Positions 29,565 through 51,220 of a DNA stretch of 64,000 bases are shown piece by piece. Numbering within the stretch: position 1 is the first letter of the stretch; each line of letters starts with the position of its first letter. The DNA is from Chloroflexota bacterium (GTDB taxonomy: Bacteria > Chloroflexota > Anaerolineae > B4-G1 > SLSP01): NCBI GenBank assembly GCA_019873725.1, contig JAIOAS010000002.1:1012-65011 (forward strand), read 5' to 3'. Under the pieces are notes generated by a model that saw only the letters and a list, made by a program, of their open reading frames with translations, was not told the DNA's origin and did not search any database. The position numbers were made by a program, and so were the translations under genes.

Positions 29565-29862
29565 TTCTTCGCTTATCTCCGTTCGATCAGTATTTTTCTG
29601 TGTCACCGACTATAAATGAGTAAACGAAAGGGATATTTAATCTGTATTGTGCCACAAAACATACCGGATACAAGCTAACACTACAGCCTGATTCAAAGCA
29701 CGGCTTGCGCTTACTCCATCAAAACCCGGAGGCCGTGCCGCCTGGCTCTGACTCCCTCGGCAGCGGGAAGTGGAAATGCTATCTGATGGGCCGGAAGAGC
29801 CAGTCATCGATCCTGTATTAGCGGATGGTCAATCGGGAATGAGAGAGGCGGGGTAAAGGCAG

Positions 29863-34283: not shown

Positions 34284-35998
34284 AACACCCCCTGATCCAA
34301 GATGTTTTTACGGGTCAGGTCGCCTAACCGATATTCATCCAGCCACGGCGCAAATTCTTCCGCCGTAACCGGCTCAAATGTGGTTTTTCCTTCTTCATCC
34401 CGTCGCGCAATGAACACTTGGAGATAGGATGCCTCTGCACGTAAATCAAAGCAATCCATAAAGTCGGGGCTGTGGGTCGTAATGACGATTTGTGGTCGCC
34501 GAAACTCCTGATCGTCCGACTCTGGCTCAAGATCTACGACTGAGCGGATAGCGTCGGCCAACCATAACATCAAATGAGGATGCAAGCCCCGATCTGGCTC
34601 TTCCAGACAGATCAAGGCGGCGCCTGGATCGCCGATAAGAACAGCCAATGTAGAGAGGAGACAAAGCGTGCCATCAGACATGCTTTCCGCTGGAATGGCA
34701 CGGCCAGGAAAGAATGTCTCGTTAAAAGCGATTTCAGCCTTGCCGGTTCCGCCAGTTACAGATGCGCGAAGCGTGGTTGTCAGGGATTGCGCTGCGCGAA
34801 TGGCGCTATGCAGGCGCTCCTGAATTTCCTCGAAAAGATCGTTTGTTGTTTCATTGTGCTTCAGAGCGTACAAAAAAGCACTTAGATTGCCAGCATTGTT
34901 TTGTAACGCTGGTATTTCTTCTCCTATGCTTTCTGGAATCACACTCTCCCGTGCAGCGCGCGGATCAACTTGAAGGAAACGCCAGCCCTGTATAAACCGA
35001 TACAAGTTTTCCAAAGGTGGGAAAGTCGTTTCCCGTCCGTACGTTGCTAAAGCGGCTGTCCGCAAAGGCAATTTCCCTTGCACTGGAAGGTATCGGGGAT
35101 GCTGGTTTTCGGGATCAGAATTGGGGTGCTCGGCGTAACGTTCCACTTTTCCGGCTTGCCGGTCAATGAAGGCGATTTCAGGTCCGATGGAATGCAACCT
35201 GAGCATCAAGCGCTCCCTATCGATAATCAGTCTGTCCCTTGCCTGCTTGATGGCTAGTTCGTAGCGCGGCGCAAAGCGTCCCTGCTGACCGGGAACTGCC
35301 ATTGTCAGATCAAATGTGAATTGCGGTTCGATTTCATCTGAAGTTCCATACCAAAACAGATGGCGGGCCATTTCCTGGTGCCCTTTTCCGATACCCTCAC
35401 TTGCCAGATCATGAACAAACCTTAAGGCTTTGAACAGATTTGATTTCCCGCTGGCATTTGGCCCGATGATGATATTGAGTTGTTTTAGTTCTATGCTAGA
35501 GTCAAAAATGCTTCTGAATCCGGTGATATGAATTTCTCGTAACAGGGGTGAGAAAACACGATGTTGTTGTTCCACAAAGGCCAAGGCTTCATCGGCTGTG
35601 ACGAGTTCGTTCCGTCCATTTTGTCTCACCCAATACGCTTCAAGCTCTTTCTGGCGATAGGGTTTGGCGTTATCATTTCCATACACACGCAACACGACAA
35701 CTGCGCCCCTTGCAGTTTCCACCGTTTCAATTTTGGGTGTTAAGGGCGGAGCGCAATGCTGTAAGCAGAGGTTTTCCAGTTGCGCTTGCAGGCGTTCAGG
35801 ATCCGGAACCCCGACAATTTCGGCAGCTCCGGCCTCGGCAGTTCCGGTCACGCCAAAAATGATCCATCCCTCAAAAACGCCGTTGGCGAACGCAATAACG
35901 GCAGGGAGCACCGCGGATACAGAGGTAAAGTCAGTTTTGAATGCGGTCCATCTGTTTTCACCCGCACTTATCCGCTCCCGTAAAACCTCCTCAATCAC
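34280..35998 (-). CDS. AlbA_2/Schlafen-like DNA-binding domain fused to AAA_21 (ABC/OLD-type) ATPase
   Basis: N-terminus LPAVIAFANGVFEGWIIFGVTGTAE (AlbA_2-like). Walker A NIIIGPNASGKSNLFKALRF. Walker B/D-loop ALICLEEPDRGLHPHLMLWLADAI. Confidence 0.6.
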   Translation of the reverse strand: MIEEVLRERISAGENRWTAFKTDFTSVSAVLPAVIAFANGVFEGWIIFGVTGTAEAGAAEIVGVPDPERLQAQLENLCLQHCAPPLTPKIETVETARGAVVVLRVYGNDNAKPYRQKELEAYWVRQNGRNELVTADEALAFVEQQHRVFSPLLREIHITGFRSIFDSSIELKQLNIIIGPNASGKSNLFKALRFVHDLASEGIGKGHQEMARHLFWYGTSDEIEPQFTFDLTMAVPGQQGRFAPRYELAIKQARDRLIIDRERLMLRLHSIGPEIAFIDRQAGKVERYAEHPNSDPENQHPRYLPVQGKLPLRTAALATYGRETTFPPLENLYRFIQGWRFLQVDPRAARESVIPESIGEEIPALQNNAGNLSAFLYALKHNETTNDLFEEIQERLHSAIRAAQSLTTTLRASVTGGTGKAEIAFNETFFPGRAIPAESMSDGTLCLLSTLAVLIGDPGAALICLEEPDRGLHPHLMLWLADAIRSVVDLEPESDDQEFRRPQIVITTHSPDFMDCFDLRAEASYLQVFIARRDEEGKTTFEPVTAEEFAPWLDEYRLGDLTRKNILDQGVF

Positions 35999-36012
35999 AT
36001 CTGGCCTCCTTC

Positions 36013-38856
36013 CTAAAATCCGTATTTCATCCGGCGCAATTCAAAGGCGAAAGCGCCGCCTTCCAGAATAGATTTGACCTGTTCGCACACCTCAGGGGTA
36101 TCCACAAAGCCGCTAGATAAAACGCGCGCATGTAAGTCTTTGTCCTCTTGTACGACATCCAAGGCAATGATCAGTTCAGCATCGCCGGCAACAGGAATGT
36201 TGGGATTGTGGGTTGTAAAGAGCATTTGACGTTTACCTCGTTCCGCGCGCAGGGTCTCGACAATCTCCTGATAAATAAAACGATTGTCCAAATCATCTTC
36301 GGGCTGATCAATAATCAACGGCTCATTCGACTCAAGCAGCAAAATGGATAGAATAGCCGTACAGCCTTGCCCAACGGATACGCCTTCCCCCAAACGCCGG
36401 CCCAAAGCGCGCCAGATTCCGGGAGTGCGGTCCCCTTCATCTAAGGCGATGTTCATCTCGATTGTGACGCGATCCGGCGGTTGCATTTCATCAAGTTCCA
36501 GGCGCGTTTTAAGGTCCAGGCGTTCACGTAACTTTTCGAGCCTGTCGCCGTCCAGGTTACAATACTGTCTGAGTTGGGTCAAAGCATCAGGGATGAACAA
36601 ACTGGCCTGGGGCTGCGGCAACCATTCGGCGTAAAGCGATTCTCCTGTATTTTCTCCTTCAGCAGCCTCGATCAATGCTAACAAGGGTAGTAAATGAGGG
36701 GATTGAGTTTGCACCAGAGCGTCATAATCGGTAGCGCGCAACCGCGTACCCCGCAAGTAACGCTCCCATACTTCACGTAGCCAGTCTGCATCACGGCCCT
36801 GTTCGACGGTGATCCGAATGCGCTGTAAACGGTTGGTGATACTTGCGGCCTTTTCCTGCCTTAACTCATATTGCTGTTTACTGTTCTCTACCAGTCGCCG
36901 CAGATATGCGCGACGTTGCGCAAATAGCTGCTGTAATTCGCGTCTGGATTTTTCAACTTCGCGTTCTAAACGTTCCAATTCTGCACGTTCGCGTTCAAGG
37001 CGTAATACACCATCCGGCGATAAATCCGGCAACGCGCTTAACGCCTCACGATAGCGCGTCTCAAACATGTCGCGCGCCTGCACCCAAGTCCCCTGCGCCT
37101 GCTCAATCTCGGTCTGCGCTTCCTTTAACCTTTCTTCAACTATTTGCCACGTAGCCTCCACATCTCGCGCCAGGCGTTGTATACGTTCGCCTAACCACTT
37201 CAACTGCGCTGCATTGGGTAGAGTCTGGAGAGTATCATCAGGCAATAAGGTTTCTGGCGGCGCTATACGACGTCGTGTTTCTTCGAGCACTTTGCCGGAT
37301 TGTCTCAGATGCAGCAAGGCGTCATCCCACCCCTGCATTTCACGGTCATAGAGACGTTTGGTTGCCGACAATTCCTGGATGCCCAATTGATGGTATTGGC
37401 GCAATTGTTCTTCAATCCGCGCTTTGCTTTTGAGACGCTCCTTCGTCTGTTTGATGCGTTCATACTCAGCGATAATCGCTTCACGATTACGGCGCAATTC
37501 GATCAACTGTGTATTATGCTCGCGCTTCAGTTGTTCTAAACTTTCCCCGACAAACCGATCCAACAACTCCAATTGTGAACTGACGTTCTCAGAAGTATAC
37601 AGGATTTCTTTCTGCCCGTAGAGTTGTGGCCGGAACACATCTACCGGACGCAAGTCTGTAGATAACCAATGCCCATTCGATTCACACCGTTCCACCTGCG
37701 TAGGGTTGCGTCCTTGTCGTACCAGACGATAGCGCGTGCGATCCTTGACGATCTCCAATTCGGCGCGCCCTGTTTCCGGCAAAAACACATCGGCAAATCC
37801 TCGAAGGTCTACTTCTTTGGTCCGTAAGGGTTCGATCTCCCATAAATAACGCAATAATTCCACCAGGGCTGATTTTCCGGTCCCACGTGCGCCAATGAGA
37901 CAATTCAGACGCGGGTTGAATTGCAGATTGATTTCACGCAGGAACCCGGTCGTATTGAATCCGTTTTGCTTAACCAAACGCAAGGCTGTTAGATAGCATC
38001 CTGGCTCTGGCGGCGGATTATCTCTTAGTCGTAGACGAGCCTGGGGGTCATGTAATGCATTTTTAAGCGCGGAGAAGTTGGGACATTCACATTTCACATG
38101 GGTAAACCATGTACCAATTTCTTCAAGCTGGTGAGCATCGGAGGCATTTAGACATGCAATTGGCCGTTCGCGTCGAAAATCAGCGTCGTTATGTTGATTG
38201 GTGACGACAAGCCGTTGCCATTCACTCAGTTCCGCAATGGTACTTTTGTGGATTTGTACGCCCAGGAGTTTGGGGTGACAAAAATCGCGTTTACGCTTAA
38301 GACCCTTGTTCGATTTTGAATCCAACAAACTGTCTTCAGAACTAAAAACATGCGCGGCAATCGCTATGCCATCGCGGTTTGCAATTGCCTGTACAACGTC
38401 GGTGAAACTGCGCGGCGTTGGAATACAAAATCCCGCATCTGTAAAGCGCTCCTTGAGGTCAAGATCATCATCCAAAAAGCGTTCGAGAATCTCAACCTTT
38501 GTATCTTCTGAGAAAATTGCCAAAATATGGATAGCGCCAAGGCCCCCTGAGGCGCTGACTTCTATTCCTGGCAACACAACGAAAGTTTCTCCATAGAGTT
38601 CCTTTGCCGCCTGTCTTAAAGGATCAATCCAGCTCGCGTCGTTGTGATTGGTAATCGCAATTGCGTCCAGTCCGGCTATTTCATGCGCTTGGCGGACATA
38701 ACGACGGGCAAAGGCAAGTTTCTCCTCCGGAGTCGCTGGTATCGCCTCGCCGTTCGGCATGGTGAAATGTTGCCCCACGCCGGGCGCATGTAGATGTATG
38801 TCAAACTTTTTGTAAGTTGCTCCCAAGCTCATCAACCGCTCCTTTGATCTAAACAC
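36013..38856 (-). CDS. PHP-domain phosphoesterase fused to SMC/Rad50-like coiled-coil ATPase
   Basis: PHP: KKFDIHLHAPG...AIAITNHND...GIEVSA. Walker A LIGARGTGKSALVELL, ~400 aa of coiled-coil-like sequence. C-terminal LIIDQPEDDLDNRFIYQEIVETL...LFTTHNPNIP (Walker B/D-loop/H-loop). Confidence 0.7.
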   Translation of the reverse strand: MFRSKERLMSLGATYKKFDIHLHAPGVGQHFTMPNGEAIPATPEEKLAFARRYVRQAHEIAGLDAIAITNHNDASWIDPLRQAAKELYGETFVVLPGIEVSASGGLGAIHILAIFSEDTKVEILERFLDDDLDLKERFTDAGFCIPTPRSFTDVVQAIANRDGIAIAAHVFSSEDSLLDSKSNKGLKRKRDFCHPKLLGVQIHKSTIAELSEWQRLVVTNQHNDADFRRERPIACLNASDAHQLEEIGTWFTHVKCECPNFSALKNALHDPQARLRLRDNPPPEPGCYLTALRLVKQNGFNTTGFLREINLQFNPRLNCLIGARGTGKSALVELLRYLWEIEPLRTKEVDLRGFADVFLPETGRAELEIVKDRTRYRLVRQGRNPTQVERCESNGHWLSTDLRPVDVFRPQLYGQKEILYTSENVSSQLELLDRFVGESLEQLKREHNTQLIELRRNREAIIAEYERIKQTKERLKSKARIEEQLRQYHQLGIQELSATKRLYDREMQGWDDALLHLRQSGKVLEETRRRIAPPETLLPDDTLQTLPNAAQLKWLGERIQRLARDVEATWQIVEERLKEAQTEIEQAQGTWVQARDMFETRYREALSALPDLSPDGVLRLERERAELERLEREVEKSRRELQQLFAQRRAYLRRLVENSKQQYELRQEKAASITNRLQRIRITVEQGRDADWLREVWERYLRGTRLRATDYDALVQTQSPHLLPLLALIEAAEGENTGESLYAEWLPQPQASLFIPDALTQLRQYCNLDGDRLEKLRERLDLKTRLELDEMQPPDRVTIEMNIALDEGDRTPGIWRALGRRLGEGVSVGQGCTAILSILLLESNEPLIIDQPEDDLDNRFIYQEIVETLRAERGKRQMLFTTHNPNIPVAGDAELIIALDVVQEDKDLHARVLSSGFVDTPEVCEQVKSILEGGAFAFELRRMKYGF

Positions 38857-38920
38857 TGAACGCTCTCATCCCTATTCTACAACAACTTCCTCAGAAGCCG
38901 CACACAAGTCGCCCTCTGTC

Positions 38921-38990
38921 CATTCCAGTATCGAGCTTCCAGCATCCAGCCTCAAGCTTCCAGCTTCCAGCATCCAGCCTCAAGCCCCAA
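38921..38990. repeat. GCTGGAA/GCTGGAT tandem repeats forming the methyltransferase C-terminal tail
   Basis: cagtatcgagcttccagcatccagcctcaagcttccagcttccagcatccagcctcaagc. Confidence 0.5.
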
Positions 38991-41900
38991 CTTCCCCTGC
39001 ACCATCTCCACCCGCTCCTCTTCCTCCGCCGGGACCTCCAACGCCTCGAAGAACGCCGCGCGGATGCCGTCCAGCGCCGCCGCCTCCGGGCGGACGAACT
39101 TGCCCTTGACCTTGCCGCGCGGCACGGCATTGATGAACGCTTGCAGCGCCGCCTTGAACGCGCCATCCGCGCCCAAACCGCTCTTCTTGAGGAACGCCTC
39201 GCAGGCCGCCGCGCCATCCTCCGCGTAGACGAGCATCACGGTATGGACGGCGTCCAGCCAGGTGTCGTAGTGTTTGGCTTCGGGGTCCACTTTGCCACGC
39301 GCGCGGCGCTGTTTGGGTTGGAGCATGGTGACGTCGCTGCCGCTCTTGCTGATGACGCGCTGCGCCACCAGATCGCGCTCCACGTCCAGCCCCAGCGCCA
39401 GGGCGAGCTTGCGTGCTTCGTCCGCCGGGAAGGTCTCCGCCTGGAACGCATCCCACGCCATCAACGCCCAATCGGTGACGGGATCGAACTGCACGTCGCG
39501 CCCCAGGAGCAGGCCGCGCTTGCGTAAGGCAATGACTTCTTCGCGGGCCAGATCGAGCGCGGTTTCCGGGCGCAAGGCTCTGGGCTGCCCGGTGCGTTCG
39601 TCCACCTCGCGGGTGAGGACGGGCCAGCGTTCGGAAATGACGGCGAGCACGGGGCCAAAGGTGCTCAGGTAAAGATCGACGCCGCTGATGCCCTGCGCGT
39701 TGAACTCCGCCGCCTTCTCGCGGGCCACAGCGCGCACGCGCGGCGCGAGATCGTCCCACCAGACGGGTTGCTCGAAGCTGGAAGCTGGATACTCGATACT
39801 GGAAGCTGGTTGCTGGATGCTGACGGCTGATAGCTGACGGCTGACGGCTGACGGCTCGCTGCGTTTCCGGCACACCAGCAGTATCGTGCTCTGCGCGGCG
39901 TTTTTCTTGGCCTGGTGGAGGGAGTGCTCGCTTTCGGTGTGGACGGGCCACGAGGCGGTAATGGTGAACCCGGCGTTGATGAGCGCCATCGCCAGGGTGT
40001 CCCACGCTTCGACCTGTTTGTGGGTGAACATCACGGTGAGGACGCCGTCGTCGCGGAGGACGCGCGCCATCTCGCGGAAGGACGCGCCCATTTTGCGCTC
40101 GTAGTCCTGCGCGGCCATCTCCCGTTTGTTGCCGCCCAGATCGGTAAAGCGGGCAGGATTGGCAACGGCTTCGGCGTCCTTGTCGGTGAGTTGGGCAGCG
40201 AACCACTCCGGGTAGAGGTGGCCCACGGTGCGCTTGAGCCACACGTAGAAAAAGTCCGCGAGTTCTGCGTACATCACGTTGTCGTAGTAGGGCGGGTCGG
40301 TGACGATGACATCCACCGAACCATCCGCCAGCGCGGCGAGGCGGGCGGCGTTGCCTTGAAGCTGCGTAAGCGGGCCGCGTGCCATTGCCGCCGTTCCCAA
40401 CTTCGCCGGCGCGAAGGCAAGCAAATCGGCCATATCTTTGTAGGCATCGGCAACTTGACTGATGGCCCACGGCATCAAGTTGGCCGAAGCGTCGAATTCA
40501 CCGTGACTCCAGACAAAAGCGTAATCGTGGCGGTCGAAATTGCTGCGCAGCCCTCGGCTTGGGTCGAAACGGCACAGCCGGTTGTTATAGATCACCATCT
40601 TGTCCATCATCAGACCGAGATAAGCTTCGATGGCAGGAGCGCGTTCTTCGCCCAAGACTTTATAGATTTCAGGGCGTAGTTCTGACAAAGTTTCGATGGC
40701 TGTCCCCATCGCTAACAGTTGTCGCGGTGAGAAGAAGTCCGACCAGATCGGCATCCCGTACAATGCCGGCCGCATATCATTGCCCTGTGGGAACGCCTCC
40801 GTCGGAATCAAATCCCGTGCTTCCCACAGCGGACGTCTGCGAGCCAGTTCCGCCTCCGCCGCCGCGACGGCGTCCAGGTCGGCCTCGGTGGGCGCGCGGA
40901 AGTCGAAGCCGCCACGCCGTTTGAGCGCCACCGAGTAGAGCATCTGCCCCATGCGCCCGGCCTGCGCCTCGGCTTTGATGTAGTCGCCGTCAATGGCGTC
41001 GCCGGTCCACGGGGAGCGGCCTGTGCCCCGGCTCACCGTGCCTTCGTCGGGGTCGTACTGTAAGGGTGAGGCATCCCCACCCACACCGTCGTTCACTACC
41101 TCCCATGCGTCTTCCGTGGTGTCTTGACGATTACGTTGATTGCCGGGATGCCTCGCCCGTACGATCTCGAAGCGCGGCGCATCCCAGGCCGGGTCGGTCA
41201 GCACGCGGACGGCTATGGGCGGGGATTTGCTCAGCCACCAGTTAGGGCTGAGTGGGACGGGCTTTCCCGTCACCGGGCAGGCGACGGTCCGCGCCCAGAG
41301 GTAGGCGAAGATGTTCTCGCCTTTACCCTTGGGGAAATACGGTGCGAGTTTCTCCTGTACCCGTTTGGCCCACACATTCCCCCACTTTTTGATGTCCGCC
41401 GCCAGTTCCGGGCCGAACGTCGCAGGGTAGTCGAGTGTGGCCTTGAGGATGACGCACGCCACAGGGTTGAGTTCGTTGGCAATGGTCGCCAGCCCGTAGC
41501 GCCGCGCCTCAAAAGGAATCGAACCGCCGCCAGCAAAGGGATCGAGGACGACGACGTCTTTCAAAGACCTGACAGGTCTCGGAAGACCTGTCAGGTCTAG
41601 CAGTTTCTCGAAAAGCGCCAGGTCGTCGGCTTCAGGGTTGACGGTGAAGGCGCGGGCATAACCATAGGGATTCGCACCCAGGTCTTCGCCGGTTACACGG
41701 GCATTGAGCAGTATCTGGCGCATCTTTGCCGGATCCCCCTTGATGCCGAGGAACCGCAGGAACCAGGCGCGATAGGCGGCCTCGTCGTCGAAAGGATTCG
41801 TAGCACAGGCTTCCAGCCTGTCCCACGCCGGCAACAACGAAGCCACAATCGCCGCGCGGGAGATCGTCAACGGGCGGCGCGCCCACCAGACATGGAGACG

Positions 41901-42008
41901 GTTGAGCGGAGGCTTCTGCGCCGCGCTCGCATCGCGCAGGCTCTCCGCGCCGATGGCGTCGAAGGGGAGCCAGGATTCGATGAGGGATTGGGGGTGGTCA
42001 GATGACAT
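38952..42008 (-). CDS. DUF1156-family N6-adenine DNA methyltransferase
   Basis: N-terminus ESWLPFDAIGAESLRD...LHVWWARRPL (DUF1156), LDPFAGGGSIPFEARRYG (SAM-binding motif I), DPPY-like VIVTDPPYYDNVMY. An internal S/Q/A-rich linker and the C-terminal tail are encoded by repeat elements. Confidence 0.7.
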   Translation of the reverse strand: MSSDHPQSLIESWLPFDAIGAESLRDASAAQKPPLNRLHVWWARRPLTISRAAIVASLLPAWDRLEACATNPFDDEAAYRAWFLRFLGIKGDPAKMRQILLNARVTGEDLGANPYGYARAFTVNPEADDLALFEKLLDLTGLPRPVRSLKDVVVLDPFAGGGSIPFEARRYGLATIANELNPVACVILKATLDYPATFGPELAADIKKWGNVWAKRVQEKLAPYFPKGKGENIFAYLWARTVACPVTGKPVPLSPNWWLSKSPPIAVRVLTDPAWDAPRFEIVRARHPGNQRNRQDTTEDAWEVVNDGVGGDASPLQYDPDEGTVSRGTGRSPWTGDAIDGDYIKAEAQAGRMGQMLYSVALKRRGGFDFRAPTEADLDAVAAAEAELARRRPLWEARDLIPTEAFPQGNDMRPALYGMPIWSDFFSPRQLLAMGTAIETLSELRPEIYKVLGEERAPAIEAYLGLMMDKMVIYNNRLCRFDPSRGLRSNFDRHDYAFVWSHGEFDASANLMPWAISQVADAYKDMADLLAFAPAKLGTAAMARGPLTQLQGNAARLAALADGSVDVIVTDPPYYDNVMYAELADFFYVWLKRTVGHLYPEWFAAQLTDKDAEAVANPARFTDLGGNKREMAAQDYERKMGASFREMARVLRDDGVLTVMFTHKQVEAWDTLAMALINAGFTITASWPVHTESEHSLHQAKKNAAQSTILLVCRKRSEPSAVSRQLSAVSIQQPASSIEYPASSFEQPVWWDDLAPRVRAVAREKAAEFNAQGISGVDLYLSTFGPVLAVISERWPVLTREVDERTGQPRALRPETALDLAREEVIALRKRGLLLGRDVQFDPVTDWALMAWDAFQAETFPADEARKLALALGLDVERDLVAQRVISKSGSDVTMLQPKQRRARGKVDPEAKHYDTWLDAVHTVMLVYAEDGAAACEAFLKKSGLGADGAFKAALQAFINAVPRGKVKGKFVRPEAAALDGIRAAFFEALEVPAEEEERVEMVQGKLGLEAGCWKLEA
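39772..39856. repeat. heptamer repeats (CTGGAAG + GCTGACG types) inside the DUF1156 MTase coding sequence
   Basis: gaagctggaagctggatactcgatactggaagctggttgctggatgctgacggctgatagctgacggctgacggctgacggc. Confidence 0.6.
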
Positions 42009-42069
42009 AAAAGAATCTCCCTACAGTGTAGTATCATGCATAATGTATGATGTTATGCTAAAAACGTTA

Positions 42070-42852
42070 TCACTTGGTTCGCGTCATTTCAATGAGCAGG
42101 AACTTACCTGACTGTAAATACGCCTTCCTGTATTCAAGCTCACCGTTTCGGCGCTGGAAAACTATGATAAGTTCGTTATCACTTAACCAAGTATAATCCA
42201 AGACCTGGTAAGCTATGTCGGTAACACGCAGAACCTGTTGCCCATCAGTGCGAGCAGCAAAAAGCTCAACCACTTCGCTTTTCACGGATTGAGCGGGAAA
42301 CACGACCCATGCGCCGTCAGGCGAAAAGGCTGGTGCCAATGTCGTCAGTATCACAAAGTCGGTGTGCAGACCGGTTGTACCAGAGTGAAATGTTGGCATC
42401 GTAAGCGTACGGGATATAAGGTCTAGAGTATACAAGTTCACTACAGAGTCGCTCTGACCATAAAAAGCAATTCGTTCGGTTTCCTTATGGTAGACTGGCT
42501 GAATTTCCTCGACTGTTGGACTTCGTGTGAGATAATCACATGAATATGTCGCCGTTACTGTTTCACAAATGTACAGATCGTTATCTTCTATCATCACAAA
42601 TCGAGAAGGCACCGTCTGGCTGTAAGGTAGCGTCAATAAACGAGAGGAGGCATCTGGCAAAACCACATCGCTTACAGGATTCTTAGATAATATAGGGCGA
42701 TATAAAATGGCACTAACAATGCACAAAGTCAGTATCAACAAAATTCCAAGTAAGGGCAAATTAATACGGATATACCACCATAGTTTATCAAATACCCCCG
42801 GTTTAGGATCATAGGTCGGGGAGCCTGCAGCCGATTCAAACTCTTCAGACAT
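42070..42852 (-). CDS. membrane-anchored partial beta-propeller (PD40/TolB-like) protein
   Basis: N-terminal TM (INLPLLGILLILTLCIVSAIL). SPDGAWVVF and DGQQVLRVTD PD40-like strands. The locus is markedly AT-richer than its flanks. Confidence 0.4.
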   Translation of the reverse strand: MSEEFESAAGSPTYDPKPGVFDKLWWYIRINLPLLGILLILTLCIVSAILYRPILSKNPVSDVVLPDASSRLLTLPYSQTVPSRFVMIEDNDLYICETVTATYSCDYLTRSPTVEEIQPVYHKETERIAFYGQSDSVVNLYTLDLISRTLTMPTFHSGTTGLHTDFVILTTLAPAFSPDGAWVVFPAQSVKSEVVELFAARTDGQQVLRVTDIAYQVLDYTWLSDNELIIVFQRRNGELEYRKAYLQSGKFLLIEMTRTK

Positions 42853-42857
42853 AACAC

Positions 42858-43178
42858 TTAACCAATCAGATGGTGCCTAATCTTGTTTCGTAGTCCTTTA
42901 TGATGCTCTAGTACGCCAGTAAACTCTGGCTGGGTCTGAGCATCCTGATTGACCAATATCCGGTTGGCTTGGCGCCATGCTTTCCAGGCTTCAGAATAGT
43001 CACCTTTGTTTAGAGCATTATCGACCTCTATATGTAACTTAATGACCTGCCCTCTAGCATTATCAGATACTTCGGTGCCATCACCACTTAAACCAGGAAG
43101 AGACCTGATATTGGAGAAAGTCACCAGTCTGCCAAATCCCAGAACGCTGCCTATCCAAACAATGATATCTCTGATCAT
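42858..43178 (-). CDS. hypothetical small protein
   Basis: 106-aa ORF in the AT-rich insert, coupled spacing to neighbours. No recognisable domain. Confidence 0.3.
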   Translation of the reverse strand: MIRDIIVWIGSVLGFGRLVTFSNIRSLPGLSGDGTEVSDNARGQVIKLHIEVDNALNKGDYSEAWKAWRQANRILVNQDAQTQPEFTGVLEHHKGLRNKIRHHLIG

Positions 43179-43196
43179 TTTCTTGCCCTTCTTCCA

Positions 43197-44210
43197 CTAG
43201 CTTTGTGCCTGTTTTCGCGAAAGTGCATCATAATCAAAAATCTCTATTGCTGCGTTGGGGTCCTGATCGCGGAAAAAGCGACTAACATACTTCCATCGTT
43301 CGCGCTCATCTTCATCATCGATGAAATACCTCAATCCCAGGTGCTCGCGTAATTCGTCTTTATGAAGCGTAAACGCAACCTTAACTGTATGTCCCCAGGC
43401 TAATGCCCCCTGAATTGCAAAAACGTAGAAAATATAAGCCACAAAACACGTAATGATGGCCTGCAATATTACCGAGTACCAGAAGTCAAAACTTTGAAGA
43501 ACAGGAGCAAATAGAAAGTCAGTGTAGAGTAACTCACCACCAAATATTAGCGTGATAATGCTCATGTTTAGCAGGAAATCCAAGAGCGATTTTTCGGCAG
43601 CAACGGAAGTCGCATAACCGCTTTTCTGTAAAAATGGTACAAGATAAGGCCACAAAGCCACAGAATCAATACCGTAAAGCACAGAAGGATATTGTTCGGC
43701 GCAAGCAATGACATTGCCTAGCCGTGTCGGCAAAATACGACGGAGCTCATGTTGAGGATAAATGTAATTGAGTTCCTCTTTGCAAACGTTTCTTTGCACC
43801 TCGGCCTTTGAGCGCTCCGGTGAACCTGCAGGGGACTTCTCAGCCAATTCCCGCCATTTTCCATACTCCCTTTTAAGGTAAAAGACTCGCCGTTCGTTAG
43901 AATCGCGCAACCATTGCCCAATCCCTGTCCACAGCCACGGATAGCCTTCAAAAAGGCGGATAATACTGATATTCAGAACGTTCAAGGCATATGCAACCAC
44001 AAGGATAGCAAAACCAGCGATCATACCTGAGGATAAATCAAGGTTCAATGCCTGCAAATGCTCAAATAATCTTGTACCCTGGAAACGTGGCCAAACAAAC
44101 GCGATATTAAGTCCAACCAAAATCACCGAAGGCAGCAGCATATCAAAGCGCAATACCTGTAGAAACAAAGCTACTAAATCTGATAGTGTTTTTACGAGAA
44201 CAGTCATGCT
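43197..44210 (-). CDS. polytopic membrane protein, unknown function
   Basis: Start MTVLVKTLSDL. At least 5 predicted hydrophobic helices and a charged C-terminal domain. AT-rich. Confidence 0.4.
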   Translation of the reverse strand, partial: SMTVLVKTLSDLVALFLQVLRFDMLLPSVILVGLNIAFVWPRFQGTRLFEHLQALNLDLSSGMIAGFAILVVAYALNVLNISIIRLFEGYPWLWTGIGQWLRDSNERRVFYLKREYGKWRELAEKSPAGSPERSKAEVQRNVCKEELNYIYPQHELRRILPTRLGNVIACAEQYPSVLYGIDSVALWPYLVPFLQKSGYATSVAAEKSLLDFLLNMSIITLIFGGELLYTDFLFAPVLQSFDFWYSVILQAIITCFVAYIFYVFAIQGALAWGHTVKVAFTLHKDELREHLGLRYFIDDEDERERWKYVSRFFRDQDPNAAIEIFDYDALSRKQAQS

Positions 44211-44221
44211 TTGCTCCTTAC

Positions 44222-45241
44222 TTATTCCTCCGCCAGCAGTACCCGTAACGCCTTCTGCGCACGAATGGCATCCGGCCCGGCGGTGCATTTGCTGAACCAG
44301 TAATAGGCTTCCTCACCGCTCATCGCCTGGATGCCCTGCCCAATCGCCTCGATGCGATCCTGGCGCGTCAGCGGCTTCACCGCCAGCAAGATCAGCGCCA
44401 GGCGCAGCCCCGTCGGTTCGTCAAGGTAGAAAGGCTTGTCGCTGCCCACAGCGCGGGCCAGGTCGGTGGCCTTGTAGCCATTGGCGCGCAGCGCCGCGAG
44501 CAGGTGCTCGGTCGTCGCGTGGAGCGTCTGCGCATCCACGTCCACGCTCCACAACGCCTGTGCGGCGGGCTTTGTGGCCTGCTCGTAAGCGAATTTGGCA
44601 GTCTGCCGCCCATTGAGCCACTGGTATAACGCCGCGCGGTAGCCCCCGGCAGGATCAGGCAACGTGTAGAGCACAAAAGGCCGGGCCGGGTCGGGTTGGA
44701 AGCTGGGTGCTGGTTGCTGGATACTGGTTGCTGGTTGCTGGATGCTGGATGCTGGATGCTCGATGCTGGATGCTGGATGCTCGATGCTGGATGCTGGTTG
44801 CTGAGGGCTGACCGCTGACTGCTGATAGCTAATAGCTGACGGCTGACGGCTGATAGCTGATGGCTGATCGCTGACATCGAAGAGACGGCGGCGGCCGGCG
44901 GTATGCAGCGGTGCGGGCAGGCGTTGCGGAGCGGCGAAGAACCAGCCAAAGCACGGCGCGCCGGGAAAGGGTTGGTCCAGGCGGTGCTGGGCTTGCAAGG
45001 CTGCGTAAGATTCGGCGTCCAGCGCGCGGATCTCGACCAGTTCCACCGTCCCGAGGAGTGCGCCGTAGGCCAGCGCATCGGGATCGAAGCCCAGGGCGCG
45101 GCAGCGTGCGTCCCGGCGCGTGGCGGCGGCGTGCACTGCCAACGGGCCGCGATAGGCCGTCTGCCAGGTGCGGATGTCCACCGTCTTTTCACCGCGGACG
45201 ATCTGCTCCGCGCGCGGCTGGTGGAAGCTCAAAGCTTTCAC
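44222..45241 (-). CDS. ASCH-domain protein fused via repeat-encoded linker to DUF3780-like C-terminal domain
   Basis: ASCH: MKALSFHQPRAEQIVRGEKTVDIRTWQTAYRGPLAVHAA...GTVELVEI. Linker SDQPSAISRQPSAISYQQSAVSPQQPASSIEHPASSIEHPASSIQQPATSIQQP encoded by heptamer repeats. The C-terminal ~170 aa sit in the position expected for DUF3780 in DUF1156/DUF499 cassettes. Confidence 0.5.
   Translation of the reverse strand: MKALSFHQPRAEQIVRGEKTVDIRTWQTAYRGPLAVHAAATRRDARCRALGFDPDALAYGALLGTVELVEIRALDAESYAALQAQHRLDQPFPGAPCFGWFFAAPQRLPAPLHTAGRRRLFDVSDQPSAISRQPSAISYQQSAVSPQQPASSIEHPASSIEHPASSIQQPATSIQQPAPSFQPDPARPFVLYTLPDPAGGYRAALYQWLNGRQTAKFAYEQATKPAAQALWSVDVDAQTLHATTEHLLAALRANGYKATDLARAVGSDKPFYLDEPTGLRLALILLAVKPLTRQDRIEAIGQGIQAMSGEEAYYWFSKCTAGPDAIRAQKALRVLLAEE
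44698..44876. repeat. heptamer repeats (CTGGATG/CTCGATG + GCTGACG types) inside the ASCH-DUF3780 coding sequence
   Basis: ggatgctggatgctggatgctcgatgctggatgctggatgctcgatgctggatgctggttgctgagggctgaccgctgactgctgatagctaatagctgacggctgacggctgatagctgatggctgatcgctgac. Confidence 0.65.
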
Positions 45242-48200
45242 TTTTCCTCCGCGTCAAGTTGGATCACGTCCAGCCCCACCGTCGTGAGCACTTCGTGCAG
45301 GGTGCGGAAGGCGTCGCTATCCACGGCCAGCCCTTCGGGGAAACGCAAAATCAACGTCAACGTCATCGTGAATTTGTCGGCGAGCTTCGCCAGGTCATCC
45401 GTCGCGGCCTTGAGCTGGCGATAGCGTTCCCAGGCCAGGTCGACGGTGAAGGTGGCCGATTCATCCTCCCCGAACTCGGCTGCTGAACGCAGTTGTACCC
45501 GCGCCGCAGGCGCATTCAGTTGTGGGATGACGACGCCCACCGTGCGCAACGCCCGCGCGCCGGCCTGTCCCTGCCCTTGCAGCGCGATGCGGAGCGTCTG
45601 GATATGGGTGATCTGCCGGTCATGGCAGATATCGGACAATTGCTGGAACGCCTGCTGCGGCACCCCCGCACCGCGCAGCGGTTTTTCTGTGGGCGGTGGC
45701 GTGATGATGATGTCTTCCCCACACGTACATTGCGATTGTGGCTTTCCGCAGACCGGGCACGGTTCTTCCGGCGGCGGTGTGATGATCACCTTACCTTTGA
45801 TCGGCAGGCCCAGTCGCGCGGCCTCGGCGGGCAGGTACAGATACGCCTCATCGGCGATCTGCACCGCGGGCGGTGGGGAGTCGTGATCGTAGCCCATCTC
45901 GGCGCGCGCGTCGTAGTAAATCCACGTCTGTGTCTTGATCCCGTTGAGGATCGTCTTCTTCAGTTGGTTCAGATCGAACAACATCGGGAGGCTCAGCCGG
46001 CGGGCAAACGCCTTGCGCAAGTCCTCGGTCGTCATTTGCGTGAGATTGGCGTCCCAAGCCCGCGATTTCACGTAAGCGGCGGACAGCATCTGCTCGTTAC
46101 CGGTGAGCGCCTTCTGCTGCTGTCGCAGCACGCGCAGCACCACGTCGGATTGGTCTTTTTGCACATCGCCCTGATCCTGTGCGGGCAGCATCTCGTGCAT
46201 CAGATACCCGTCGCGCTGCAATGCATCCGCCTGCGGAAAGTAGCAATGCCGGTAGACTTTCGTGATGCCCACCCGCACATCCAACTCCGCGCTTTCACCG
46301 AGCTTCTTGATCTTTTTGCGCTGCTCCTCGGTGAACTCCTGCATCCGCTGCGCGTCGCCCGTGATCCGGTTGATGCCCAGGTAGTAGCGAACGGTATCCA
46401 CCACATCATCAACCCGCTCGCCATCGGCCACCAGGAACAGCAGATTGTTGGGGAAGCGGCGATACCCCTCCATCGCGCCGGCGCGCGCCGCGAGCTTGCG
46501 CGCCAGTTCGGGCGGTTGCGGCGCGGTCGCCGTGGCGCTGGCCGCGTCGTAATGCAACACGACCAGCTTGGGCGCATCGGCGTCATCGTCCACGTCGTCG
46601 GCTTCCTGGGGAAAATAGATAACCTTGAACGCGCCGCTCTTCCAGACCTTGCGGATGCGCGCATCCAGTTCCGCTTTGGCCGTCGTCAGCCCCACCAGTT
46701 GCATTTCGTCGTTGATGATTTTGTTGATCGAAGGCTCCGGCTTGAAGCGATACCGCAGCCCGTCCCACTCGAAGAACCAGCCCTTGTCGTAGAGCCGTTC
46801 CGCCGCCTTGTGGACCAACGCCGGCTCGTCGCCTGGCGCCAGCGCGCCCAGCAGCAATTCGGGCGGCGCGATGCCGGAGATCGCGCCCTGTACCAGGCTA
46901 TGCAGGAACACCGTGGTCGCCACGCGGCGGGCGTAGCGCGGCTTGCCCGTCATCACCCAGGGACCGTCGATCTGGTAGGCGTGGCCCGGCGCAGCGCCTT
47001 TGGGACTGACGATGTCGGCTTCGATCACTTGCCGGAAGGCCGGACGCTCCAGGCGGCTGGTGAGGTCTTCGGCGATCTCCGTGTTGCGCAAGTCCACGTG
47101 ATACGGCGCGATGAACCAGGCATCGGCCGGGCGCTCTTCCCAGACCCGGCGCACCACCAACGCCAGCAGGCGCAGTGCGCCGCGCGTCTTTTGGAAATTG
47201 GGGATCGTCGCCACCCGCAGAGTCAGCGCGTTGAGGAGTTCTGGGTGAAATGGGTAAGCCGCCGCCAGCGCCTGCGCGTATTCCGCCGTAAGCGCCTGCG
47301 TGGGCAAGGCCACGTTCTGCTCGTGCCAGCGGCGGTAAGCCTCCGTGTACGCCTGCGCCGTCTCGGCGGCGGCCTGGGCGTCAATCGTCGCAAACAACCG
47401 GTGGCGCACAATCGCGGCGATCTCCGTCTCGCCGGTAGGGGTGATGACCCGCTCTTGCCGCGCCGAAACCTTGTACGCTTCGGCCAGGTGCGCGCGCAGT
47501 TGGTCGGTCTCCTTCGCAAAGGCGTCTTCCGCGCCAGCCAGGGTGAGCACCACGACGACGTTGGCGCGGCTGGCAGCGAACTCCAGCAGCGACATCAAAA
47601 AAGCCACCGTCTGCTCGGCCAAATCGGATTTTCCGGTAGCGGTGGGGACGGATTGCGCGGCGCGCATGTGCCGGGCCACTTCGTCCAGCATAATTAGCGT
47701 GGGCCGGTCACCCAGCAGTTCGGCAAAGAGGCCAGTGCCGGGCGCGGAGCGGTGCTGATCGCTCTCCTGCGCCAGCGCGTACCCGGCCGGGCCGCCGAGT
47801 TGGTAGGCCAGTTCGCCCCATAGCGTAAACGTGCGGAGATTGGCGTCTGCATGATAAAGCCCCGTCGTGGGATCCAGGTCCGAACCTACCACACCGGCGA
47901 TGCGCACCTGATCAGGCGCGGGTAACAAAGCCGGGTCCACCACCTGCGGCATCAGCGCCGCGGGCAGGTCTTGGCCGCGCGCCGCGTGATACAGCGCAAT
48001 GAGATTGTGCGTCTTGCCGCCGCCGAAAGCGGTTTCCAGGCGCAGAATCGGGCTGCTGGCAGGGCGTGCGCCGGTCAGGCGCCCGAGGGCTTCAGTCAAC
48101 AACAGCCGCAGGCCGGCGGTAGGATATGTGTTCTCGAAAAAGGTCGTGGGGTTTTGGTACACCGGCACAGCTTTGCCATCCAGCACATCCTTGAGCCGGG

Positions 48201-48276
48201 CAGCAAAAATGTCTTCAGTCAATTGCCCCTGCAAGACTTCGGGCCGAGGCGTACAGGTATCAAAAACGAGTTGCAT
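45238..48276 (-). CDS. DUF499-family ATPase
   Basis: MQLVFDTCTPRPEVLQGQL...ILRLETAFGGGKTHNLIALYHAARG matches the P-loop and N-terminal region of DUF499. RBS aggagg 6 nt upstream of the ATG at 48276. The longer ORF-track start at 48576 is unlikely. Confidence 0.6.
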   Translation of the reverse strand: MQLVFDTCTPRPEVLQGQLTEDIFAARLKDVLDGKAVPVYQNPTTFFENTYPTAGLRLLLTEALGRLTGARPASSPILRLETAFGGGKTHNLIALYHAARGQDLPAALMPQVVDPALLPAPDQVRIAGVVGSDLDPTTGLYHADANLRTFTLWGELAYQLGGPAGYALAQESDQHRSAPGTGLFAELLGDRPTLIMLDEVARHMRAAQSVPTATGKSDLAEQTVAFLMSLLEFAASRANVVVVLTLAGAEDAFAKETDQLRAHLAEAYKVSARQERVITPTGETEIAAIVRHRLFATIDAQAAAETAQAYTEAYRRWHEQNVALPTQALTAEYAQALAAAYPFHPELLNALTLRVATIPNFQKTRGALRLLALVVRRVWEERPADAWFIAPYHVDLRNTEIAEDLTSRLERPAFRQVIEADIVSPKGAAPGHAYQIDGPWVMTGKPRYARRVATTVFLHSLVQGAISGIAPPELLLGALAPGDEPALVHKAAERLYDKGWFFEWDGLRYRFKPEPSINKIINDEMQLVGLTTAKAELDARIRKVWKSGAFKVIYFPQEADDVDDDADAPKLVVLHYDAASATATAPQPPELARKLAARAGAMEGYRRFPNNLLFLVADGERVDDVVDTVRYYLGINRITGDAQRMQEFTEEQRKKIKKLGESAELDVRVGITKVYRHCYFPQADALQRDGYLMHEMLPAQDQGDVQKDQSDVVLRVLRQQQKALTGNEQMLSAAYVKSRAWDANLTQMTTEDLRKAFARRLSLPMLFDLNQLKKTILNGIKTQTWIYYDARAEMGYDHDSPPPAVQIADEAYLYLPAEAARLGLPIKGKVIITPPPEEPCPVCGKPQSQCTCGEDIIITPPPTEKPLRGAGVPQQAFQQLSDICHDRQITHIQTLRIALQGQGQAGARALRTVGVVIPQLNAPAARVQLRSAAEFGEDESATFTVDLAWERYRQLKAATDDLAKLADKFTMTLTLILRFPEGLAVDSDAFRTLHEVLTTVGLDVIQLDAEEK

Positions 48277-48454: not shown

Positions 48455-51220
48455 ATGATGACAGCAGTACAATCCCCAACACCTACTACGCACCGGCGAT
48501 TCTTCTCAGACCGCCAAGCCGCGCTGCGGTGCATCGCCTCCGCGTTGGAATCTGCCGAACACATACGGATTGCCACGGCGTACTTTGAGGGTTCAGGATT
48601 TCAGGCGCTCCAAGAGACGCTCAGAGGCAAAAAGATTCGTCTGCTTGTGGGACGGCAGGAAGGTGGAGAAGATAGCTTTCGCGAAGTATTGAAAGAATTC
48701 GTCCGAGAGCTTTCCTATGGTCCGCAAGAGCATCGCAGCCGCGCTATGCAGCAAATGTTGGAGGCGCTGGAACAAGGATGGATGACCGTAGCAGTGGGAG
48801 CAGCGTTATCCGAAGACTTGCCCTGGCTAGAGGCGCGCTATCTCTACCATCATGCCAAACTCTACATCGCCGATGAACGATTCGCAGTAGTTACATCAGC
48901 TAATTTTTCATACCATGGCTTGTGTATTAGCCGTGAAGCTGGGATCACGGTCACTGATTCCGACGATGTGCGCTACTTTGTCCATTGCTTCGACAAGTAT
49001 TTTGACCAGGCGCGTTCCATTACTGCAGAGCTAATCGAAGCCCTGCGGGCGTATCTGCGCGCGTATGATCCCTATGTAGTCTATGCTCGCGCTTTGCTGG
49101 AACTGTATGGCTTGCCACAGGACGAAGCGCCGCCACAATTGCCCCCTTTGGCCAAGTACCAGGAAGGCGTAGTATCCAGCGTTTTGCGGTCGCTCCTGGA
49201 ACACCATGGGGCGTTCCTTATTGCTTCGACCGGCTTGGGCAAGACAATCATCGCCGCACACGTCGCAGCCTACTTGCGGATGCAAGGTGAAATCGATAGC
49301 GTAGTGGTGATCGGACCGGCAGGACTCCGTGAGGTCTGGAGGCGCTCCATGCGGGCAGCGCGGGTACCCAGCGTAGAATTCTCATATCACACCCTCACCC
49401 GCACCGACGGCGACTCAAACTTGCCCATCCTGGAACACGAACTGCGCCAGGTCAATGAGCAGACACTTATTATCCTTGACGAATCCCATCGCCTGCGCAA
49501 TGAAAGCAGCAATGGCGGCGATCTGCGGTTGAGCAATGCGCGAATCCAAGAAGCCGTGCGGGAAAAAGGGGCCAAAGTGTTGCTCCTAACCGCCACCCCT
49601 TATGGCAAGGATTTTTCGGAAGTCGAAAGTCAATTGAAGCTCTTGCCTGCTCCGAGACACGCTATGCACACTGCATTAGGATTCACCACCAGCATTACGA
49701 CATGGCAAGCGCAAAAGTTGGCCGATTTGCCAGAACTACCGCCCTGTACAGTGCTAACCACACCGGATGTCGTGCGGCACTTTGGACATCAAGACGAACA
49801 GGGTGAACGCTATGTTGTATTCTCTGAAACCGATCGGCGCTATTTCCCGCGCCGTATCCGCCTGCAGACCGTACGTTACGACAACCCTTTCGATGAGTTC
49901 CTGGCTGAGCTTCTCGAAAGTAAATTGCTGTATAAAGAATTGGCATCCGGCAAACCATCTCCACAGGCTGCTCTGCCACTCGACCTACCCAATGGACATG
50001 GTGAAAGGCTACCCCTGCAAGAAGCACTCTTCTTACATCAGTTTTGTTCTTCGCCAGCAGAAGTCAAAGAGGTGTGTGACAAACTTGAGTTCGGCGGCTA
50101 CAACTACACCTTTGCCCGCCAAAAGGAACTGAGCGATTTCGTCCGGGAACGACGCAGACTCATCCGACAATCTGGGAACCCTCGCAAAGACCCAAAGCTA
50201 CGGGCCTTATTCGACATTATCAAGACGGCTAAAGACAGCAAATTAGTCATCTTTTGCGAGTATCATGCCACAGCACGTTATCTACGAGAAGGATTACTGA
50301 AGCTTATGCCGCGTTTGAAAGTCGAAACGACGCTGGATGTATCCGATTTGGATGGTCTTCTACGTCGTTTTGCTCCGCTGGCTAATGAAGTGCTGCCGGA
50401 AGAGCGCCAACCAGAACAAGAAATCCAGGTATTGATCGCCACACGCTCTATGGCTGAGGGCTTTAACCTGCAGGATGCGGCAATACTGGTCAATTACGAT
50501 CTGTCTTGGACAGTCTTACAACTGGCACAACGTATGGGGCGCATTCTACGTCCCTGGCATATTCCCCGCGACGTAACCATCTATAACTTTGTACCTTCTA
50601 CAATGGATCATGCGCGCATTGCACATGCTCGTAATTGGGAACGCCGCTTGCGAGAACGCAATCGCCAACATCGCTCGCTTGCCCAGATCCCCGTGATGGT
50701 TTATAAGGAAAGCCGCCAGAGCAATTTGGCGCAAGAGCTTGAGATGGAACGCCTGGGGCGCGAAATGTACCTGTCTGGAGAGACCTATGCTGACCTGGAT
50801 TTACACCAGGTAATGGAATTCATCCAATCGGTGGATGATCTCACGACCAGCACCTTCTACAATGATCTGGCAACCATTGCCAACCGTGATGAAATTCTCA
50901 ACTTGCCGGCTGGGATCCGGAGCGCCATGGTCAAGCCTGGTCGCAAGCGTCTGTTTCTCTTGCTGCGTAGCGCGCGTTCACGTTTGGATACAGTTCTGGC
51001 AGACAGTAGAGGGCGTCCATTGGATGAAAGTTGGCGACGCGATGACGTGATGCGGGCCATTCGATGTCTGCCTGAGACACCCAAAGCACCTGCTGCTACC
51101 TATCCTACACCTGATGATTTTGACACCTGGATCGAAGTTACACGCAATGAGTGGGCGACCCAGCACGGACTCGATGCAACAAAACTACAGATCGTCTGTG
51201 CTTTGGCATTACTGCCGTAG
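48455..51220 (+). CDS. PLD-like (HxK) domain fused to SF2 helicase (DEAD/SNF2-like)
   Basis: PLD: YLYHHAKLYIADERFAVVTSANFSYHG. Helicase: FLIASTGLGKTIIAAH, LIILDESHRLRN, VLLLTATPYG, VLIATRSMAEGFNLQDAAILVNYDLSWTVLQLAQRMGRILRPW. Confidence 0.75.
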   Translation: MMTAVQSPTPTTHRRFFSDRQAALRCIASALESAEHIRIATAYFEGSGFQALQETLRGKKIRLLVGRQEGGEDSFREVLKEFVRELSYGPQEHRSRAMQQMLEALEQGWMTVAVGAALSEDLPWLEARYLYHHAKLYIADERFAVVTSANFSYHGLCISREAGITVTDSDDVRYFVHCFDKYFDQARSITAELIEALRAYLRAYDPYVVYARALLELYGLPQDEAPPQLPPLAKYQEGVVSSVLRSLLEHHGAFLIASTGLGKTIIAAHVAAYLRMQGEIDSVVVIGPAGLREVWRRSMRAARVPSVEFSYHTLTRTDGDSNLPILEHELRQVNEQTLIILDESHRLRNESSNGGDLRLSNARIQEAVREKGAKVLLLTATPYGKDFSEVESQLKLLPAPRHAMHTALGFTTSITTWQAQKLADLPELPPCTVLTTPDVVRHFGHQDEQGERYVVFSETDRRYFPRRIRLQTVRYDNPFDEFLAELLESKLLYKELASGKPSPQAALPLDLPNGHGERLPLQEALFLHQFCSSPAEVKEVCDKLEFGGYNYTFARQKELSDFVRERRRLIRQSGNPRKDPKLRALFDIIKTAKDSKLVIFCEYHATARYLREGLLKLMPRLKVETTLDVSDLDGLLRRFAPLANEVLPEERQPEQEIQVLIATRSMAEGFNLQDAAILVNYDLSWTVLQLAQRMGRILRPWHIPRDVTIYNFVPSTMDHARIAHARNWERRLRERNRQHRSLAQIPVMVYKESRQSNLAQELEMERLGREMYLSGETYADLDLHQVMEFIQSVDDLTTSTFYNDLATIANRDEILNLPAGIRSAMVKPGRKRLFLLLRSARSRLDTVLADSRGRPLDESWRRDDVMRAIRCLPETPKAPAATYPTPDDFDTWIEVTRNEWATQHGLDATKLQIVCALALLP

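Follow-up and report, generated by a model that had tools for sequence, protein, structure and literature searches.

A probably exchangeable three-gene membrane cassette within an Hma-like operon of Chloroflexota

What is a short, AT-rich run of genes for membrane proteins doing in the middle of a restriction-like operon? The question is raised by a 64,000-nucleotide stretch of a Chloroflexota genome (contig JAIOAS010000002.1, positions 1,012 to 65,011; hereafter the window), in which a DUF499 ATPase gene and a gene for a small ASCH-DUF7680 protein are separated from a DUF1156 methyltransferase gene by three genes of markedly different composition. The comparisons below make it likely that the locus is an Hma or DUF499-centred BREX-related (BR) restriction-like operon from an Anaerolineae-type Chloroflexota genome and, jointly with this, that the three-gene cassette is an embedded passenger, swapped between related Hma loci, and not a subunit of the core. 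The original prediction, made from the sequence of the window, had called this class of cassette functionally uncharacterised, which is outdated. DUF499-centred systems have been classed as BR types 1-3 (PMC12839542), Hma is represented in PADLOC, and a mechanism has been described for the type-2 system MANTIS (Gao_RL), with the ATPase as loader of the methyltransferase, hemimethylation stimulated by the small protein and restriction carried out by a PLD-helicase (bioRxiv 10.64898/2026.09.23.753747). Further, embedded genes have been reported in 62.7% of 1,485 Hma systems (96.7% co-oriented); such genes are seldom housekeeping, most being defence-related or unknown, and seven of the nine candidates tested defend (bioRxiv 10.1101/2024.01.29.577857).

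Six co-oriented genes fill positions 48276..38952, and a check of the open reading frames (ORFs) found all of them on the minus strand where the original prediction had placed them. Its identification of the two large proteins also stood: the 1012-aa protein is a DUF499 ATPase (Pfam DUF499 8.8e-40; PADLOC HmaC 2.4e-108; NCBIfam DUF499_antiphage 8.3e-73, below the equivalog cut-off), and the 1018-aa protein is a DUF1156 methyltransferase (Pfam DUF1156 4e-16 and N6_N4_Mtase 9e-8; PADLOC HmaB 4e-77; NCBIfam DUF1156_antiphage 1.4e-67). The mechanical ORF of the ATPase gene extends to 48576, and the profile matches start at the ATG at 48276; the protein is 93% identical to its orthologue in L013, a closely related locus. 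While a DUF499/DUF1156 defence cassette was thus rightly recognized, its extent was drawn too short at 38952-48276: the operon runs 9 kb further on the same strand, through a second gap (38954..33592) to a fourth core gene at 33621..29863, downstream of the methyltransferase gene. The 1252-aa product of this gene matches PADLOC HmaA (2e-67), PLD_Helicase (2e-73) and BrxH (9e-79) as well as Pfam SNF2-rel_dom and Helicase_C; the PLD_Helicase match falls on the helicase portion, and the N-terminus shows a weak PLDc_2 match (E 6.4e-5, 23.2 bits against a gathering score of 27). The core order is therefore ATPase, ASCH-DUF7680 protein, methyltransferase and SNF2 helicase with a putative HKD domain, all on the minus strand, with a DUF499-family ATPase, a DUF1156-type N6-adenine methyltransferase and a Swi2/Snf2 helicase joined in one operon, as is characteristic of Hma and other DUF499-centred BR systems. 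We surveyed 80 species-representative loci encoding DUF7680 and found the order DUF499, DUF7680, a first slot, DUF1156, a second slot and a helicase of ~1250 aa, the helicase following DUF1156 in most of them.

The cassette occupies the first slot, a gap of ~2.2 kb (44219..41998, bay 1) with three co-oriented genes between those for the ASCH-DUF7680 protein and the methyltransferase. Its AT-richness, as originally noted, is real: the GC content is 43-46% (44200..42000) against 62-68% in the flanking core genes, and the GC content at third codon positions is 0.44 against 0.76-0.78. The predicted gene content likewise holds, namely a 336-aa protein with four transmembrane (TM) helices, a 106-aa protein and a 260-aa TolB-type propeller fragment with one TM helix. 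Successive intergenic gaps are 14, 18, 5 and 61 nt, the strand is the same throughout and an AGGAG ribosome-binding site precedes the first cassette gene 14 nt past the preceding stop codon. The three genes are probably co-transcribed; a promoter and terminator scan of 38.8-48.7 kb returned sites no more numerous than in shuffled sequence and is neutral on separate transcription. A GC content ~20 percentage points under that of the neighbouring core genes might suggest a one-off, recent arrival of foreign DNA, for example a mobile-element remnant unrelated to the operon. We consider this highly improbable: at least 15 distinct loci, taken from different genomes, have an insert with these three genes at this very site, which contradicts such an origin; the boundaries of the insert coincide with the ends of core genes; and Pfam scans of the six ORFs of the originally predicted range and 14 neighbouring ORFs detected no transposase or integrase domain.

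This recurrence follows a consistent pattern. Homologues of the four-TM protein (hereafter MEM) at 35% identity or above are always accompanied by the small gene and the propeller gene. Where the flank is readable, the cassette lies in the first slot of DUF7680-type Hma loci (L002, L005, L008, L013, L028, L029, L038, L045, L110-L117 and L121; for L115, L116 and L121 the visible flank comprises only the methyltransferase gene downstream). Among the propeller-linked MEM loci with at least 1.5 kb of readable upstream sequence, DUF7680 lies upstream in nine and not in two (L116 and L122). L122 is the exception in kind: here (L122:3150-12697) a divergent cassette, comprising MEM, a 171-aa protein and a weak propeller match, is placed between genes for a 1310-aa GAGKTH P-loop ATPase and a PIN protein on one side and a gene for a 778-aa DUF1156-like methyltransferase on the other. 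The 1310-aa ATPase has no relative in the PDB and does not match the DUF499 profile built here; L122 appears to be a BREX-like ATPase-methyltransferase locus of another kind, in which the cassette takes the analogous position.

Comparison of the window with L013, which also carries the cassette, displays its replacement directly. From 52965 the two sequences are 88% identical as far as 44220, where the ASCH-DUF7680 gene has its stop codon; there the identity is lost. Homology resumes over 41997..38955 (83%), breaks at 38955 and resumes again at 33591. The core proteins of the two loci are 86-93% identical, whereas the homologous cassettes are only 34% (MEM) and 45% (propeller protein) identical. 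Over nine loci, the identity of the cassette shows no correlation with that of the core (Spearman 0.05 and 0.00), and the GC content of the cassette is lower than that of the core in all nine. The gulf between core and cassette identities in L013 and the invariably lower GC content therefore speak for an exchangeable cassette and not for a part of the core. Since the homology breaks fall at core gene ends, the swap probably proceeded by recombination within the conserved flanking core genes. The cassette further shows the features of Hma-embedded genes, lying between hma core genes, in their orientation and with variable presence. Upstream of the operon lie genes for Prim-Pol (54787..55713) and DnaN (57962..59329). 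Synteny with L013 holds in the Prim-Pol region, and two Anaerolineae genomes thus have the entire 44-53 kb stretch in common at 88% DNA identity.

Both gaps between the core genes are cargo bays. The first slot is filled (>200 bp) in 45 of 61 loci and the second in 16 of 36; the GC content of the slot is below that of the core in 41 of the 45 filled cases. Elsewhere, the cargo of the first slot includes AbiL/RloB, HEC-01, GmrSD (HEC-05/06), DarTG, OLD-like, HicB, CAP, HSP70/GrpE and NB-ARC genes, and L015, a 78%-identical relative, has a CAP-domain gene there instead. The membrane cassette itself appears to be confined to one slot in the Chloroflexota-type loci. In the second bay of the window a gene for a Ppl-like PHP-ATPase is followed by the two HEC-01 genes (Table 1), the Pfam matches in the bay being AAA_21, SLFN_AlbA_2 and DUF4276, and L013 has at the same place an SMC-like ATPase gene and GmrSD. 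Two further loci illustrate the variety of cargo. The cyanobacterial Hma locus L097, on a plasmid of Leptolyngbya sp. BL0902 (NZ_CP046156.1 138456-150132), has an EVE gene upstream, a stand-alone DUF7680 gene and, in the same slot before the DUF1156 gene, ~4.7 kb of toxin-antitoxin cargo (PIN, DarT/DarG, MazEF). L005 (4722-9809, 15454-21137), from an Anaerolineae metagenome-assembled genome, has HTH_GRAD/GrpE-like, HSP70 and pentapeptide-repeat genes upstream of the cassette in the first slot, and a TIR-KAP NTPase gene with BrxC/BrxD-like genes after the methyltransferase gene.

The constancy of position admits a second account, in which the cassette is a dedicated accessory functionally coupled to this Hma/BR subtype, for instance by tethering or activating the ATPase-methyltransferase-nuclease machinery at the place in the membrane where phage DNA comes in, or by relaying an envelope signal to it, and not autonomous. 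Every propeller-linked MEM cassette whose context can be read adjoins Hma core genes, save that of L122, and there too it stands just upstream of the methyltransferase gene of an ATPase/DUF1156-like methyltransferase locus. In most cases the methyltransferase gene follows the cassette immediately, at a distance that in most loci is 12-94 nt; the genes share one strand with very tight spacing, and where extra cargo is present the cassette usually stays beside the methyltransferase gene (L005, L038). Yet the core does not need the cassette, since only six of the 80 surveyed loci carry it, 16 of 61 first slots are empty and many others hold unrelated cargo. Moreover, the phylogeny of the cassette is decoupled from that of the core, the cassette of L002 persists without a downstream methyltransferase or helicase gene, and in L008 an NB-ARC gene intervenes between cassette and methyltransferase gene. 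We regard a dedicated accessory as the main, though rather improbable, alternative to the exchangeable passenger. The original prediction had left a choice between a recruited accessory module and an independent Abi-like unit: the insert does evolve separately, and the second option comes close to the comparative data, though embedding in such operons had already been published (bioRxiv 10.1101/2024.01.29.577857).

Turning to the proteins themselves, MEM is an all-helical membrane protein in its AlphaFold2 model (pLDDT 89.8, pTM 0.83), and its alignment shows two invariant motifs, IIRxFEGYP just after the second TM helix and LPTRLGN within a central domain of ~120 residues. Sequence and solved-structure searches found no relative of it in Pfam, PADLOC, NCBIfam or the PDB. 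The small protein has a divergent counterpart ORF of 87-115 aa between the MEM and propeller genes in all ten loci examined. In the third protein, the propeller part covers ~200 residues after the TM anchor, and the matches span ~2-3 blades. Its family profile matches solved TolB structures with E ~1e-7 and Atu1656 with 3.3e-8, and the protein bears PD40 blades by this measure; the NCBIfam propeller_TolB match is 0.0023, and precomputed Tricorn_N matches are faint to weak. It shares the PD40-type blade motifs with TolB and other PD40 beta-propeller proteins and differs from them in being a fragment that is anchored in the membrane at its N-terminus and lacks a TolA-binding domain; a complete six-bladed propeller with such an N-terminal domain is not present in the 260-aa protein.

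The MEM profile recovers 6,947 clusters at 50% identity, and no scanned member has a Pfam match to the MEM region. Most members of this superfamily belong to a longer clade (clade B) of ~430 aa, some with a C-terminal DUF11 domain. The clade-B gene is almost always followed by a gene for a ~250-aa partner with an HhH-TM-SAF-like architecture (32 loci), and Hma genes accompany it in none of 62 loci; the clade is widespread in soil bacteria and adjoins MreB, kinase and metabolic genes. These neighbourhoods weaken a purely defensive reading of the MEM superfamily, against which the Hma-specific, propeller-linked branch stands out. We had considered the clade-B partner as a TolB-like homologue and rejected it (hhalign P=0.065, with a TM helix as the sole resemblance). 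Metagenome loci L123-L189 (proteins P0172-P0312) represent this large four-TM superfamily, in which FEGYP and LPTRLGN are invariant. Separately, L011 (4702-11716) encodes a distant MEM homologue (~30% identity) directly downstream of genes for a protein kinase and a PQQ-propeller/caspase (Peptidase_C14) protein, with a CHAT gene nearby; this may be another conflict-system context.

These contexts bear on a third possibility, that the cassette is a non-defence passenger, for instance an envelope-maintenance or transport-related membrane complex hitch-hiking in a recombination-prone gap. The lack of any defence-family match in the cassette is compatible with this, TolB-type propellers are typically envelope proteins, and clade B with its HhH-TM-SAF partner sits in soil bacteria beside MreB, kinase and metabolic genes. 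On the other side, Hma-embedded genes are seldom housekeeping (bioRxiv 10.1101/2024.01.29.577857), all identifiable cargo found here in the first slot consists of defence or toxin-antitoxin modules, and the propeller-linked clade has not been seen outside ATPase-methyltransferase loci. We thus judge a non-defence role to be unlikely.

Several observations weigh against the picture of an Hma operon with an exchangeable defence passenger. First, the core proteins miss the NCBIfam MANTIS equivalog cut-offs (DUF499 245.8 against 1200 bits, DUF1156 228.6 against 1000, PLD 88.4 against 1100). Second, the three cassette proteins match no Pfam, NCBIfam or PADLOC defence family, including all 5,027 PADLOC v2 models. 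Third, most of the MEM superfamily is found away from Hma, with a different partner protein and in varied neighbourhoods that are not obviously defensive. Fourth, that the propeller-linked clade is found exclusively in ATPase-methyltransferase loci could reflect a functional dependence on the host system. Fifth, no recombination sites or mobility genes were found, the case for recombination being drawn from the break-points. The assignment of the operon and the exchangeability of its cassette remain, together, the likely reading. That the cassette supplies an additional membrane-acting layer of defence is suggested because it is embedded in Hma ("guilt by embedding"); this is the role that we favour, at about an even chance. 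A stronger version, in which the trio is a new membrane-embedded module working specifically with BREX-related ATPase-methyltransferase systems, is one that we hold to be rather improbable; were it true, a signal from the envelope or from DNA entry, sensed by the propeller ectodomain, might be passed on to restriction or set off an abortive response at the membrane, and the trio would be the founding defence-associated branch of a membrane superfamily of ~7,000 clusters without a Pfam match.

By analogy with MANTIS, the core of the window may work as follows. The ATPase would load the methyltransferase onto asymmetric sites; the small protein would stimulate or regulate methylation, its ASCH domain being a possible reader of nucleic acid or of a modified base; and the helicase-nuclease would restrict unmethylated DNA. 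More speculatively, the propeller ectodomain of the cassette might sense envelope or injection events, with the four-TM protein as a candidate effector or transducer. The features on which these proposals draw are collected in Table 1.

Table 1. Positions of the operon, its two bays and adjoining features in the window
Feature	Position	Strand	Length and supporting evidence
DUF499 AAA+ ATPase (HmaC / MtsA-like)	45238..48276	minus	1012 aa; Pfam DUF499, PADLOC HmaC
ASCH-DUF7680 fusion protein	44222..45241	minus	339 aa; Pfam DUF7680 2.3e-28; low-complexity linker
Heptanucleotide tandem repeats, TGGATGC x15 and GCTGACG x11	44697..44875		TRF; encode the ASCH-DUF7680 linker
Cassette gene 1, MEM, four-TM all-helical membrane protein	43197..44207	minus	336 aa; hydropathy, alignment
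Cassette gene 2, small protein	42858..43178	minus	106 aa
Cassette gene 3, single-pass anchored TolB-type (PD40) beta-propeller fragment	42070..42852	minus	260 aa; TM helix at residues 32-50
DUF1156 N6-adenine DNA methyltransferase (HmaB / MtsC-like)	38952..42008	minus	1018 aa; Pfam DUF1156, PADLOC HmaB
Second cargo bay	33592..38954	minus	GC ~50%; edges at break and resumption of L013 homology (38955, 33591)
Ppl-like PHP-ATPase, second bay	38856..36013	minus	PADLOC Ppl 3.6e-44
HEC-01A Schlafen/AlbA-ABC ATPase, second bay	35998..34280	minus	PADLOC HEC-01A 7e-45
HEC-01B DUF4276/TOPRIM, second bay	34283..33618	minus	PADLOC HEC-01B 4.5e-4
SNF2 helicase with a putative HKD(PLD) nuclease domain (HmaA / MtsD-like), fourth core gene	29863..33621	minus	1252 aa; beyond the originally predicted range
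Stand-alone PLD-SNF2 helicase, divergently transcribed	48455..51220	plus	921 aa; GC ~52%; Pfam PLDc_2, ResIII, Helicase_C

The small core protein, encoded between the ATPase and methyltransferase genes in the position of MtsB, had been read as a fusion of ASCH with DUF3780. The ASCH half of this claim stands, as both the ASCH beta-barrel fold and the sequence profile were recovered; the C-terminal half does not, the domain matching Pfam DUF7680 (Table 1) and giving no DUF3780 match in Pfam (E<=10) or NCBIfam (E<=1). Profile-profile comparison by hhalign of DUF7680 with DUF3780 was non-significant in two runs (P=0.14-0.23), the value being P=0.14 against ten verified DUF3780 proteins taken from canonical loci, and we dropped the DUF3780 label; a C-terminal domain without a DUF3780 match was an outcome that the original prediction had itself named as refuting. 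The alignment pairs "EEAYYWFSK" of DUF7680 with "EERWWLYSK" of DUF3780, a resemblance of motif only, and the DUF7680 model has four strands and a helical bundle, like DUF3780 as described (PMC12839542); a remote homology of the two is possible, if undemonstrated. While ASCH fusions of the BR small protein have been noted before (PMC12839542), DUF7680 is unmentioned in the searchable literature. The ASCH-DUF7680 fusion is widespread, with more than 430 clusters chiefly from Anaerolineae/Chloroflexota.

The linker of this fusion protein is encoded by heptanucleotide tandem repeats. The TGGATGC and GCTGACG repeats and their complements (up to 15 copies) also occur at 39769-39856 and 38923-38978; in the methyltransferase as in the ASCH-DUF7680 protein they encode the low-complexity linkers, and they are found at the methyltransferase stop codon as well. 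Copy number varies among close relatives (the window, L013, L018 and L110), with the repeats in frame in every intact copy. They may belong to a class of repeats spread over the genome, or they may serve as a substrate for phase variation. A split ASCH-DUF7680 gene in L030 was considered as a case of repeat-mediated phase variation and rejected, the split stemming from a masked run of N.

Beyond the ATPase gene, the divergent 921-aa helicase matches the PADLOC model C3a139 HKD+Snf2 (8.7e-26) and has the same position beside the Hma operon in L013. We rejected it as a core gene, its closest plasmid relatives being solitary helicases and not parts of BR loci; it is probably a separate single-gene defence element. 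At the other end, downstream of the core helicase gene, lie a 1490-aa ORF without a Pfam match (25134..29606, minus strand), a CHAT-FGE-sulfatase fusion (20958..23408, minus strand) and a Peptidase_C25-like ORF (23446..24963, plus strand); the genes at 20958-29606 could be further conflict-system genes.

The cassette thus adds to the Hma-embedded candidates one composed of membrane proteins only, drawn from Chloroflexota metagenome-assembled genomes and without a match in PADLOC v2, and it draws attention to a large four-TM family, unmatched in Pfam, in which FEGYP and LPTRLGN are invariant. If functional, the cassette would be a tractable example of how a methylation-based system gains a membrane layer.

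Set beside known systems, the window shares with Hma (BR type-1) a DUF499 AAA+ ATPase, a DUF1156 N6-methyltransferase and an SNF2 helicase-nuclease on one strand, matched by PADLOC HmaC, HmaB and HmaA. It differs in a conserved fourth gene, ASCH-DUF7680, which is unlisted in the type-1 description, and in a putative N-terminal HKD domain (a weak match) of the helicase, a type-2 feature, although this helicase has ~1250 aa rather than ~900 aa. With MANTIS it shares the A-B-C-D order of ATPase, small protein, methyltransferase and helicase, and by this analogy it probably also shares the logic of ATPase-loaded hemimethylation and restriction by a motor-nuclease. In contrast, the small protein of MANTIS is a stand-alone DUF3780 (MtsB), while that of the window, at the same operon position, is DUF7680 fused to ASCH. 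Canonical DUF3780 loci also lack a gap between the small-protein and methyltransferase genes, which is absent from all ten MANTIS/DUF3780 loci examined, whereas the DUF7680 clade of BR/Hma systems has its preferred cargo bay precisely there. As in the HEC and PDC systems, the embedded genes lie inside the hma operon, share its orientation and are variable in content, and the second bay of the window carries HEC-01 itself together with Ppl; in contrast to HECs that are ATPases or nucleases, the cassette consists entirely of membrane proteins. Thus, the type of the core system and the embedding of genes in it are already known, and the membrane cassette of three genes is a candidate embedded element that has not been described before.

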